Shown here: positions 2,571 through 5,014 of the stretch, one piece after another
Layout of the letters: every line of letters begins with the position of its first letter
How positions within the stretch are numbered: the first letter of the stretch is position 1
IMG/VR virus record: IMGVR_UViG_2913123054_000002
Location: 1-5,363 of that record
From: a virus
Taxonomy: Duplodnaviria; Heunggongvirae; Uroviricota; Caudoviricetes
Length of the DNA: 5,363 bases
Reading direction: 5' to 3' (one strand)
The notes under the pieces: generated by a model
Told to the model about the DNA's origin: nothing
Database searches by the model: none
What the model saw: only the letters and a program-made list of their open reading frames with translations
Program-made: the position numbers and the translations under genes

Positions 2571-2991
2571 CCAATGGCGACCAGAAATTTGTCCGATAAC
2601 CGGACGTGCATTTTTTATGTGGATTGAGCATCCAACATTGGGAAATGTGCCGACATATGGTGGCCCATTAGATAGTTACACCATTCCAACAAAGGACGGT
2701 GACGGTGAGTTTTCATGTGAGCGTTATGATCATGATTTTGGCGGTTGGGTAGAAAGCGAATGTCTTGGGTTATATCTGATTGATGATAAAGAGCAATGCA
2801 GAGTCTATGAACTGGAGGAACGCGTTAAAGAGCTGGAGGCGCGGACAGTAGATCTTCCTCAACGGTTACAGCCGGGTGCTGATGGTTATGATGATTGGTA
2901 TGTACACAGCGCAGATGATGGTGAATATCTCAAAGCTGATGATGTTATCGCGGCAATCCGCGCCGCTAGTATTTGCATCAAAGGAGAGTGA
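2563..2991 (+). CDS. Hypothetical acidic phage protein (142 aa) with a short coiled-coil-like segment
   Basis: ATG at 2563 with GGGAGG (2551-2556) at 6-nt spacing; overlaps the upstream stop. Contains ELEERVKELEAR and an acidic C-terminal region (DGYDDWYVHSADDGEYLKADDV). It vaguely recalls Ead/Ea22-like prophage proteins; this is not verified. Confidence 0.72.
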   Translation: MSDQWRPEICPITGRAFFMWIEHPTLGNVPTYGGPLDSYTIPTKDGDGEFSCERYDHDFGGWVESECLGLYLIDDKEQCRVYELEERVKELEARTVDLPQRLQPGADGYDDWYVHSADDGEYLKADDVIAAIRAASICIKGE

Positions 2992-2992
2992 C

Positions 2993-3349
2993 GTGGAAAT
3001 AAAACCAGAAGATGAGTTAAGTAATATTGTTTTATTTCCGGTAAAAGAGGATGACCCACGTAATCAGGTTAATTTTCTTTATGAGCCATCGGAAAGACCA
3101 TATTGCCATCACGCTTCTGTTCGGGTTGATGAAAAAGAGCGTCAGGTCCGATGCAAAATCTGTGGCGCGGTTGTGGAACCATTTGACTGGATGCTCTCTG
3201 TGGCGAAAAGAGAAACCAGACTGGCAGATGATGTAAGGCTATTGCGCCAGGAGGAACAGGAAAGGCGGAAAAATATAGAAAAGCTAATTCAGATTGAGCG
3301 TAACGCGAAAGCACGGATACGCAGGGCGGCAAAAGCCAGAACTGAATAA
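2993..3349 (+). CDS. Hypothetical zinc-ribbon-like protein with a basic, coiled-coil-like C-terminal tail (118 aa)
   Basis: GTG at 2993, 1 nt after the upstream stop, with strong SD AAGGAGAG (2981-2988). The track start at 2876 lies inside the previous gene and gives an out-of-frame Met-rich artefact. Motif PYCHH-x17-CKICG, then a highly charged tail RLLRQEEQERRKNIEKLIQIERNAKARIRRAAKAR. Confidence 0.65.
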   Translation: MEIKPEDELSNIVLFPVKEDDPRNQVNFLYEPSERPYCHHASVRVDEKERQVRCKICGAVVEPFDWMLSVAKRETRLADDVRLLRQEEQERRKNIEKLIQIERNAKARIRRAAKARTE

Positions 3350-3420
3350 TAAAATCAGCGATGTAAATAAAATTTAATCCTTAACCGGAGGGATTTCTGC
3401 ACCCTCAAATCATCCGGAGG

Positions 3421-3436
3421 CCGCCCGAAAGGGCGG
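3421..3436 (+). other. GC-rich hairpin with a GAAA tetraloop (CCGCCC-GAAA-GGGCGG) in the intergenic spacer; candidate RNA regulatory or processing element, not a canonical terminator
   Basis: Perfect 6-bp G/C stem with a GNRA-type loop, read directly from the sequence. No U-tract follows on the plus strand (TAATAAAAAT). On the minus strand the T-run precedes rather than follows the stem. A flanking CCGGAG direct repeat at 3385-3390 and 3414-3419 gives additional pairing potential. Confidence 0.35.
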
Positions 3437-3472
3437 TAATAAAAATAGCTGAACTAATCGGAGAATAAAACG

Positions 3473-3667
3473 ATGAAAAACCGTAAAGCAAAAATTCTGT
3501 TAGCTCGCAGAAACGGTGTTGGGGTCTGGCGATGGTTGAGGATTAGTAACAGACGAGTGAGGTTGACGGGGTGTTGCGGGGTGATGGGTCACAGTTGTTG
3601 CAAAAAGCCCAACGCGGCACAAAACCGCTGGAGAAATCACAGTTCTAAGCAAATTAAATGGGAGTGA
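3473..3667 (+). CDS. Hypothetical small basic Trp/Arg/Cys-rich protein (64 aa); coding status uncertain
   Basis: ATG at 3473 with GGAGA (3460-3464) at 8-nt spacing; the stop at 3665-3667 sits 1 nt before the next start, suggesting coupling. Against: unusual composition, several rare Arg codons (AGA, AGG, CGA), and G-rich DNA with GGGGTG repeats. Confidence 0.42.
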   Translation: MKNRKAKILLARRNGVGVWRWLRISNRRVRLTGCCGVMGHSCCKKPNAAQNRWRNHSSKQIKWE

Positions 3668-3668
3668 T

Positions 3669-3887
3669 ATGACTACACTATTCAGGAAAAATTATCCGCG
3701 AAAGAGCAGAGCAACAGAATTCCTGTTTCTCATTCTGTTTATCGTATTGATGACACCGATATCCCCGCTAATTTTTGTCTGGGTAATCGGGAAAATAATT
3801 GAGCCCGTTATTGAATTGTATAACGACGTGGTATGGGCGTCGTTTAACGCACTACACAATAAAATTAATCCGTATAAGGAAGGTTGA
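3669..3887 (+). CDS. Small single-pass membrane protein (72 aa)
   Basis: ATG at 3669 with GGGAG (3660-3664) upstream. Basic N-terminus (RKNYPRKSR) followed by a hydrophobic stretch FLFLILFIVLMTPISPLIFVWVIGKII. Stop TGA at 3885-3887 is 1 nt before the next start. Confidence 0.6.
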   Translation: MTTLFRKNYPRKSRATEFLFLILFIVLMTPISPLIFVWVIGKIIEPVIELYNDVVWASFNALHNKINPYKEG

Positions 3888-3888
3888 A

Positions 3889-4560
3889 ATGACTGAATTA
3901 ACCAAAGAACAATTAGTCGAAGAAGCTAAATTAAAAATAGCGATTGCGAAATGCCACCCAAATTCAGGGATGGCACAGGTAGAGGGTGAGTTATTCAAAA
4001 TTGCACTGGCATCACTGGAAGCAGAGCCAGTGGCGTGGAAGGCAACCTTCACGCAAATTGATAATGAATATAATACGTTCACTGCTCTGTATTCTGACAA
4101 AGCAGAAGCCGAACGGTGGGTGCAACTGCATGAAATAGGTGACTTTCGGGCAGAAATAACACCGCTTTACGCAGCGCCGCCAGCGATGGTAGTGCCTGAT
4201 GAAATGGATTTGCTTACCTGTCATCTCGACGGTGTAACTGAAACATATGCTGATGGCTGGAACGCCTGCCGCGTCGCCATGCTTCAGGCCGGAAACTTTC
4301 GGGAAAATAAGAATTCGTCAACCAACTCTCCGGGAACTCCGGCTGGCTGGGTAAGCTGTAGTGATGCAGTTCCTGCGGAATACTGCGATGTGATTCTTCG
4401 CGATGATCTCGGGAATGTATTCCCCGGTTCCTGGGATAAGGTTTTTTGCCCCATTCGTGGCGGGAATAAGATGGCTTTTGTGGACAAAGACGGCATCGAA
4501 GTAGGGAGCTCAACTCACTGGATGCCGCTACCGGAACCACCGCAGGAGGTGAATCAATGA
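3889..4560 (+). CDS. DUF551-like prophage protein (223 aa)
   Basis: ATG at 3889 with AAGGAAGG (3876-3883) at 5-nt spacing; the track start at 3799 overlaps the previous gene. The C-terminal region (GWVSCSDAVPAEY…SSTHWMPLPEPPQ) matches the W…HWMPLPEPP signature I recall for DUF551 proteins in enterobacterial prophages; not verified by search. Confidence 0.75.
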   Translation: MTELTKEQLVEEAKLKIAIAKCHPNSGMAQVEGELFKIALASLEAEPVAWKATFTQIDNEYNTFTALYSDKAEAERWVQLHEIGDFRAEITPLYAAPPAMVVPDEMDLLTCHLDGVTETYADGWNACRVAMLQAGNFRENKNSSTNSPGTPAGWVSCSDAVPAEYCDVILRDDLGNVFPGSWDKVFCPIRGGNKMAFVDKDGIEVGSSTHWMPLPEPPQEVNQ

Positions 4561-4640
4561 CCTGGCCTGAGGCATTCACCACGGTAGGAATCGCAATGGC
4601 GGTGGCACTGGTTGTGTATTCGATTTGCCGCTGGGGATAA
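4557..4640 (+). CDS. 27-aa hydrophobic micro-protein (MTWPEAFTTVGIAMAVALVVYSICRWG), absent from the ORF track
   Basis: ATG at 4557-4559 overlaps the upstream stop (ATGA). A perfect SD AGGAGGT (4544-4550) sits at 6-nt spacing. One predicted transmembrane-like segment. The stop TAA at 4638-4640 lies 17 nt before the terminator stem. Confidence 0.45.
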   Translation: MTWPEAFTTVGIAMAVALVVYSICRWG

Positions 4641-4657: not shown

Positions 4658-4676
4658 AGCCCCGATAGCCGGGGCT
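4658..4676. terminator. Bidirectional rho-independent terminator (AGCCCCG-ATAGC-CGGGGCT)
   Basis: 7-bp GC-rich stem with a 5-nt loop. On the minus strand it is followed by TTTTCTATTT, a strong U-tract. On the plus strand it is preceded by AAAA and followed by AAATTTAT, a weaker one. It sits between convergent genes ending at 4640 (+) and 4685 (-). Confidence 0.7.
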
Positions 4677-4684
4677 AAATTTAT

Positions 4685-4840
4685 CTACGATTCACATTTT
4701 GTGCATTTTGGAATTGGGAAGGCTTTTGCTTTCACTGGGTATACGCGTTTTCCTGATTCATCGTGATAGAAGCGACGGAACAAAATTTCGCAAGGTTCTC
4801 CACATTTACTGCATATTTTTTTATTAACAGTCTTTTCCAT
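4685..4840 (-). CDS. Small zinc-ribbon protein (51 aa, MEKTVNKKICSKCGEPCEILFRRFYHDESGKRVYPVKAKAFPIPKCTKCES), absent from the ORF track
   Basis: Reverse-strand ATG at 4840-4838 with AGGA 8 nt upstream; stop TAG at 4687-4685, immediately before the terminator, whose strong U-tract is on this strand. Two CxxC pairs (C10/C13 and C46/C49) are typical of a zinc ribbon. It is convergent to the upstream operon and lies in AT-richer DNA. Confidence 0.6.
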   Translation of the reverse strand: MEKTVNKKICSKCGEPCEILFRRFYHDESGKRVYPVKAKAFPIPKCTKCES

Positions 4841-5014
4841 AAAAGAGTTCCTGTATAAAAACACAAACTGTATTCCTGTTCAGTATTGCGTTTATCTACA
4901 GACCTGATACCCTTGCACATGTCTTTTCTGTGTGCTAAAGGGTGTCAGATCATTACGATCAACCTCCTTATCAATCACACTAGTTGCGATGCTGTAACAT
5001 CACAATCTCTATAG

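Follow-up and report, generated by a model that had tools for sequence, protein, structure and literature searches.

The window, that is, the whole 5,363-nt stretch analysed here, is the early-right region of a Rac-like or lambdoid prophage. Its genes, and the spacer with which this study is concerned, are as follows.

148–894: DnaC-like loader
866–1678: phrog_630 protein with no function assigned, equivalent to the DUF1627/YdaW-type gene at the same position in relatives
1679–2116: Ren-like protein
Several small ORFs, with the last stop at 3349
2876–3349: ORF upstream of the spacer, stop codon TAA at 3347–3349, with a Pfam Zn_Ribbon_TF match below the cut-off
3350–3472: spacer of 123 nt between the stop at 3349 and the start at 3473
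3473–3667, plus strand: ORF of 64 aa
3669–3887: DUF4014 gene
3889–4560, plus strand: DUF551-type gene

The 64-aa protein is very Arg-rich, contains a CC..H..CC motif and matched no Pfam family; the phiV10 homologue of its gene overlaps the gene before it and has no hairpin upstream. Further along, a hairpin at 4658–4676 (AGCCCCGGCTATCGGGGCT), with a T-run on the minus strand, lies between the convergent ORFs 3889–4560 (plus) and 4685–4864 (minus) and is probably the real terminator of the region; a sub-threshold Rfam asX2 match overlaps it.

The spacer contains the hairpin CCGCCC-GAAA-GGGCGG at 3421–3436 (5′ arm 3421–3426, loop 3427–3430, 3′ arm 3431–3436), and the initial annotation had described it correctly as a GC hairpin with a 6-bp stem, a GAAA loop and no U-tract. 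A closing pair, G3420–U3437, extends the stem to 7 bp, and the fold was predicted at −15.5 kcal/mol (z = −3.9, with none of 200 shuffles equally stable); the unpaired probability of the arms was about 0.001 in every context folded. The motif CCGGAGG occurs twice in the spacer (3385–3391 and 3414–3420), the second time next to the hairpin, and the 25-nt pattern of Shine-Dalgarno (SD) sequence plus hairpin is expected to occur by chance 0 times in the window. No U-tract adjoins the hairpin on either strand (plus tail UAAUAAAAAUAG, minus tail CCUCCGGAUGAU), and terminator and promoter scans of the window and of loci L001 and L005 listed nothing at the spacer or element, in keeping with the earlier view that the hairpin is not a terminator. 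Rfam covariance models gave no match in 3340–3480 at E up to 10. The absence of a boxA-like sequence was likewise confirmed for the plus strand of the whole window (CGCTCTTTA-like, up to one mismatch), near-matches occurring elsewhere on the minus strand only. The 3′ end of the upstream ORF (3323–3346, AGGGCGGCAAAAGCCAGAACTGAA) is 71% identical to 3430–3453 (AGGGCGGTAATAAAAATAGCTGAA), which begins in the 3′ arm of the hairpin, and GGGCGGC at 3324–3330 is complementary to the 5′ arm; this likeness may reflect deletion microhomology or a competing pairing.

Comparison with other copies showed that the hairpin is one part of a larger conserved element, whose parts in the window are listed below.

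3341–3375, plus strand: AU-rich 5′ part of the conserved intergenic linker, starting within the upstream ORF, at its final codons and stop; CTGAATAA...AAATTTAATCC is common to unrelated upstream genes (alignment, haplotypes)
3376–3414, plus strand: A-half, AATCCTTAACCGGAGGGATTTCTGCACCCTCAAATCATC, with a weak hairpin (GAGGG 3388–3392 / CCCTC 3402–3406) and an SD-like GGAGG
3415–3420, plus strand: SD CGGAGG (consensus AGGAGG), directly abutting the hairpin
3421–3436, plus strand: hairpin CCGCCC-GAAA-GGGCGG, with G3420–U3437 as the seventh pair
3437–3444, plus strand: A/U-rich spacer of 8 nt, TAATAAAA, with no SD-like motif and mostly unpaired in folds
3445–3468, plus strand: dead start ATA (3445–3447) and vestigial 7-codon frame ATA GCT GAA CTA ATC GGA GAA TAA, left over from the 5′ end of an MTELTK.. 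(DUF551-type) gene
3460–3475, plus strand: the 64-aa gene's own SD GGAG (3460–3463) and start ATG (3473–3475)

The linker spans the distance from the upstream stop to the downstream start, with the aligned consensus ...CTGAATAATTAAATTTAGCACTGTAAATAAAATTTAATCCTTAACCGGAGGGATTTCTGCACCCTCAGAACATCAGGAGG-CCGCCCGAAAGGGCGG-TAATGAAAAATG. The A-half and the B-half are always exactly 30 nt apart, without indels, in 162 copies. The A-half shows no covariation support for a structure and is missing from some copies ('B-only' copies), in which the unit is set 4 nt 3′ of another gene's stop codon; the minimal unit that these share with full copies is TC-AGGAGG-hairpin-T. In one locus, L193, the A-half has decayed and the B-half has been retained. 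As candidates for small ORFs within the element, frames from ATT or CTG and the frame ending at the TAA after the hairpin were considered; they were rejected, as direct reading found no usable start codon for them.

The element is abundant. Its 75-nt core (3376–3450) is present in about half of the complete E. coli genomes (2661 of 5426, with 4812 sites in total), often in several copies (as many as 8 in a genome and 2 in a prophage), and also in 21 phage records. Scans of IMG/VR yielded ~200 copies, including loci from a scan aimed at the junction type of the window. An exact search for the A-half in one genome per species (185,579 species genomes) found it in E. coli and Shigella only, and the element is absent from the K-12 Qin prophage, so the K-12 transcriptome and ribosome-profiling literature is not applicable to it; its carriers include O157 Sakai and E2348/69. 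A copy at 94% identity in PP818812.1 (11351–11419), recorded as 'Actinobacillus phage vB_Apl-pPE4', may be a host misassignment or contamination, all other finds being in Escherichia, Shigella and Salmonella records. The hairpin sequence had no match in the literature searched.

In all nine annotated loci inspected, the element is intergenic, with different genes on each side. Upstream neighbours include ead/Ea22-like, a 103-aa hypothetical, SAM methyltransferase and DUF977 genes, as well as the window ORF 2876–3349; downstream neighbours include DUF7167, DUF4014, DUF551-type 'MTELTK..' proteins and the Q antiterminator, and in one locus a convergent gene. The element fronts at least five unrelated gene families. 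DUF4014 homologues hardly occur outside Escherichia and Salmonella records, and the most divergent of them bear the same element. Since the whole stop-to-start linker is common to unrelated genes on both sides, it also offers a homology stretch for cassette swapping. Three loci (L002, L005 and L006) carry, ~30–60 nt upstream of the element, AAATCA-GAAA-TGATTT followed by TTTATT, an AU-rich GNRA hairpin with a U-run, which is weakly terminator-like and was not called by the scan.

Start codons were surveyed in 119 unique contexts of ±150 nt. An ATG or GTG lies 6–11 nt 3′ of the hairpin in 115 of them and at +2 in two. Long ORFs begin 2–11 nt past the hairpin in 96 contexts, at +2 (n = 2), +6 (n = 22), +7 (n = 37), +8 (n = 1), +9 (n = 27) and +11 (n = 7), with peaks at 6, 7 and 9, and nearly all the remaining contexts have an ATG at +6 to +9 that opens a truncated ORF or a short upstream ORF. 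Among the 119 contexts, a start after the hairpin is lacking only in L007, L011, L171 and the window. The genes opened by these starts encode DUF7167, DUF4014, DUF551-type and other proteins. Given that the post-hairpin codons coincide with the PGAP starts in annotated loci, that residue 2 of DUF7167 aligns to position 1 of the Pfam profile, that the PHROG profile of DUF4014 aligns from residue 1 and that GTG replaces ATG in one lineage with the 277-aa ORF kept, these codons are the true gene starts. In locus L004, the PGAP start lies ~100 nt downstream of the +9 ATG (1571 vs 1673), though that ATG already opens a frame of 155 codons; with no SD at the usual distance, starts that follow the cassette may be misplaced by gene callers.

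Indeed, the 6–9-nt spacers between hairpin and start (TAAGAA, TAATGA, TAGTTAA, TAGTGAA, TAATGAAAA and TAACAAATA) are free of GGAG, GAGG, AGGA and AAGG, and no other accessible SD lies at the canonical distance. At the Q antiterminator junctions the start is at +11 and the spacer has its own GGAG. Away from the element, the same families have ordinary SDs (GGGAG 4 nt before the ATG at 3669; AAGGAAGG 5 nt before the ATG at 3889). AGGAGG, immediately 5′ of the stem, is the one strong SD. All 142 of the 142 A-anchored copies keep its GGAG core unchanged, and its pairing with the 16S 3′ end was predicted at −9.5 kcal/mol for the CCGGAGG of the window and −10.3 kcal/mol for the consensus CAGGAGG. 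The 3′ arm, GGGCGGU, can also pair weakly with 16S (−8.2 kcal/mol), but it is buried in the −15.5 kcal/mol stem (unpaired probability 0.001). In the relatives, the linear distance from SD to AUG is 22–25 nt (the 16-nt hairpin plus 6–9 nt), well above the functional 5–9 nt, and looping out of the hairpin would bring the effective spacing to 6–9 nt. In the predicted folds the SD is partly occluded, with a mean unpaired probability of 0.28–0.56, lowest in the window. The spacers seem to be related to one another (TAATGA(A)(AA)ATG), which means that the junction types cannot count as fully independent support for a constraint on spacing.

Degenerate SDs (GGGATG, AGGAAA) are almost confined to copies without a dependent gene: the ratio of intact to degenerate is 77:1 with a dependent gene and about 30:4 without one, counts that leave out unrelated AAAAAA/TCACTA hits. 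In the 'B-only' loci with an upstream ORF (L179, L181–L183, L185 and L187), GGGAGG has become GGGATG, which creates an ATG in frame with the ATG of the upstream ORF and read through the hairpin (ATG CCG CCC GAA AGG GCG GTA ATA AAA ATG). Scanning ~1.8 Mb of related prophage DNA for the layout SD-hairpin-ATG returned this element and one unrelated candidate; the latter, in L109, reads GGAGG-ACTGGC-AAAAAC-GCCAGC-AAGAAGAAA-ATG and precedes a 72-aa ORF.

Taking these results together, we propose a portable split (noncontiguous) ribosome-binding site (RBS) with the hairpin as its central part: an SD-hairpin-AUG cassette that Rac-like and lambdoid E. coli prophages carry on their early transcripts and that also marks mosaic recombination junctions. 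This reading, whose mechanism we infer from sequence and predicted folding, has in our estimate a probability of roughly 0.55. The 30S subunit would pair with the strong SD AGGAGG; the very stable 16–18-nt tetraloop hairpin 3′ of the SD would stay folded and loop out; and the start codon, 22–25 nt away in sequence, would thus be placed the equivalent of 6–9 nt from the SD. An intact hairpin nevertheless persists where no start is served, as in the window and L007/L171, and likewise at the Q junctions with their own GGAG; it may have another role there, or hitch-hike.

The 59 haplotypes are 96% identical, which makes covariation uninformative: the hairpin has one compensatory change (G-C to A-U), 24 wobble-compatible one-sided changes and 14 unpaired cells, and 83 of 500 shuffles pair as well. 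C-to-U changes in the 5′ arm are found in 28 of 142 copies and G-to-A changes in the 3′ arm in 6 of 142, although the copies are not independent and a G49-to-A change is also present; this asymmetry fits a constraint on the plus-strand RNA, where C-to-U keeps G-U pairs, but is only suggestive. Some lineages have weakened stems (−5 to −8 kcal/mol) with the downstream gene retained.

The copy in the window departs from the general pattern. In 12 of 12 sister copies of its junction there is an ATG at +8, which opens an upstream ORF of 7 or 13 codons that ends 4 nt before the ATG of the 64-aa gene or overlaps it; the window alone has ATA (3445–3447). The sequence after the hairpin, ATAGCTGAACTAATC (3445–3459), is a degenerate version of the MTELTK/DUF551-type gene start ATGACTGAATTAACC (3889–3903) and sits 444 nt upstream of the intact gene start at 3889. 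The stretch homologous to phiV10-type phages opens at 3460 with the GGAG that serves the 64-aa gene as its own SD, and that gene begins 36 nt past the hairpin. The 3445–3459 remnant reads as the scar of a cassette insertion. Recombination would have left a short remnant of the 5′ end of a former downstream gene, ending by 3459, and the ATG of the remnant would later have mutated to ATA. Judged by its sequence, the cassette in the window is orphaned, serving no start codon, and its hairpin is probably a relic with at most a residual role, for example in transcript stability or ribosome standby. The initial annotation had proposed that the spacer may control the downstream 3473–4640 cassette; the SD-hairpin-start layout of the relatives does link the hairpin to expression of the downstream gene, but in the window that link is broken by the ATA and by the separate SD of the 64-aa gene. 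The pairing implied upstream of the hairpin (CCGGA/UCCGG plus GAUUU/AAAUC) does form in the window, where the minority variant CCGGAGG and AAATC allow CCGGA to pair with UCCGG and partly occlude the SD. However, the C in CCGGAGG is found in 5 of 142 copies, and the second CCGGAGG repeat has the same limited origin; the pairing depends on substitutions of few copies and thus is not a conserved feature of the element.

Several other explanations of the element have to be weighed, and three of them are considered in turn below; each fits the SD-hairpin-ATG geometry less well than the split RBS does. The hairpin could be an operator for a phage or host RNA-binding protein that represses or activates translation of the gene just downstream, as do the MS2 coat protein, T4 RegA, or L31 on rpmE. 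Its position within the ribosome footprint between SD and AUG and its near-invariant sequence, with a GAAA loop in 134 of 142 copies, would suit such a role, and in the window the next gene after it encodes the Arg-rich 64-aa protein that matched no Pfam family. Near-invariance is, however, expected anyway from recent spread, the loop variants GGCA, TAAA and AAAA are tolerated, and no candidate protein co-occurs with the element. The 64-aa protein is itself unlikely to be the cognate binder, because its gene follows only 13 of the ~200 copies found and is present without the hairpin in phiV10. We therefore regard an operator as unlikely.

It is improbable to a similar degree that the element has no function at the RNA level and is a linker upheld only by its spread through homologous recombination, the palindrome being a breakpoint hot spot. 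Homology between mosaic relatives does stop at the element edges, and the multiplicity of copies (up to 8 per genome, 2 per prophage), their 96% identity and the lack of significant covariation are all consistent with this idea. It would, however, leave the downstream genes with no usable SD, and it does not account for the concentration of SD decay in copies without a dependent gene or for the retention of the B-half in L193 while the A-half decays.

An mRNA stability or processing element would be a 3′–5′ exonuclease barrier for the upstream segment, or would protect the 5′ end after an RNase E cut in the AU-rich leader, giving the two gene blocks different half-lives. The very stable hairpin after a long AU-rich stretch, and its preservation without a start codon in the window, L007, L011 and L171, agree with this possibility, which we consider a poor one since it leaves unexplained the invariant SD abutting the stem, the fixed 6–9 nt to the starts and the absence of any other SD.

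Very improbable, finally, are a boxB-like nut site used by an N-type antiterminator, intrinsic termination or pausing, and RNase III cleavage at the hairpin. The initial annotation had been drawn to boxB-type targets and RNase III by the GNRA-capped GC hairpin in an early phage transcript, and the tail past the hairpin is fairly U-rich in L007, but these readings are largely refuted by a plus strand without boxA, a tetraloop in place of a pentaloop on the 6–7-bp stem, a promoter-distal position in both early operons (in L191 between Abc2 and integrase, in the window after the replication genes), the lack of a U-tract on both strands of the window, no match in the scans or in Rfam, no gene annotated as N in the Rac-type relative L003, and a 7-bp stem far below the roughly two helical turns (about 20 bp of dsRNA) that RNase III needs. 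Pas and other prophage sRNAs, which surfaced through a mention of DUF1627, were also considered and rejected: by the paper's description they are separate loci beside the holin/lysozyme operon with U-tract terminators, whereas the element lacks a U-tract and lies elsewhere.

Returning to the split RBS, a tentative and rather doubtful extension of it is that the element acts as a self-contained, context-insulated 'expression adaptor', in which SD, rigid hairpin, spacer and ATG would ensure translation of any ORF recombined in at the ATG, while the ~65–105-nt unit would provide homology for swapping, duplicating and deleting small-gene cassettes in both early operons. If so, the element would be nature's counterpart to the insulated RBS parts of synthetic biology and would link the shuffling of genes to their expression. 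The split-RBS mechanism, if true, would itself account for the failure of gene callers to see an SD for these genes and for the occasional misplacement of their starts, and would connect expression with mosaic recombination in lambdoid prophages. For the window itself the outcome is modest, as its copy is decoupled from a start codon.

Among known systems, boxB of lambda nutR/nutL shares with the element the form of a small GC hairpin, the GAAA-type loop and the place on an early phage transcript. Its stem is of 5 bp and its loop a pentaloop, however, and it depends on boxA, adjoins pL or pR and binds N, whereas the element has a 6–7-bp stem, a 4-nt loop, no boxA and a promoter-distal position. 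The module boundary or linker sequences described for lambdoid phages are a parallel in another respect: both are short conserved intergenic stretches with interchangeable flanking genes and homology breakpoints at their edges. Unlike those sequences, the linker studied here is built internally of SD, hairpin, spacer and ATG, and this structure points to a role in translation as well.

To our knowledge, natural split RBSs are known from very few cases, chiefly genes 38 and 25 of phage T4, and, searching the literature by keyword for prophage split RBSs, we found the T4 and rpmE work only. In T4, a hairpin between SD and AUG cuts the spacing from 22 to 5 nt in gene 38 and from 27 to 11 nt in gene 25 (PMC3014915); destabilising these hairpins lowers translation, and the mRNA track of the ribosome tolerates such hairpins (PMC3014915, PMC7297116). 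The gene 26–25 junction (Nivinskas 1999; Malys and Nivinskas 2009) is like the element in that its hairpin shortens the effective spacing, and unlike it in having a longer linear distance, in lying in a gene overlap and in having been demonstrated by lacZ fusions and DMS probing. The gene 25 hairpin is conserved in close relatives only and is of recent evolutionary origin (PMC3014915), and the same holds for the element.

The closest counterpart is the gene 38 start, which by direct reading is TAA-GGAG-AGGGGC-UUCG-GCCCUU-CUAAAU-AUG. In both systems the SD abuts a 16-nt hairpin with a 6-bp GC-rich stem and an extra-stable tetraloop, followed by a short A/U spacer (6 nt in T4, 6–9 nt in the relatives here) and the AUG; SD and AUG are 22 nt apart in the linear sequence of T4 and 22–25 nt apart here, and the T4 site lies right after the upstream stop codon, like the 'B-only' copies. 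The 45-nt gene 38 initiation region folds at −16.7 kcal/mol, against −15.5 kcal/mol for the hairpin here. There is no sequence homology between the two: the loop is UUCG in T4 and GAAA here, and the stems differ. The T4 site serves one gene and its function has been demonstrated, whereas the cassette described here, with its inferred function, is multicopy, fronts at least five unrelated families and stands at mosaic junctions. As far as sequence and predicted folding go, the two sites are isomorphic but not homologous, and the element is apparently a new and undescribed member of the split-RBS kind. If the mechanism is true, it would be by far the most widespread natural split RBS and a handy test system.
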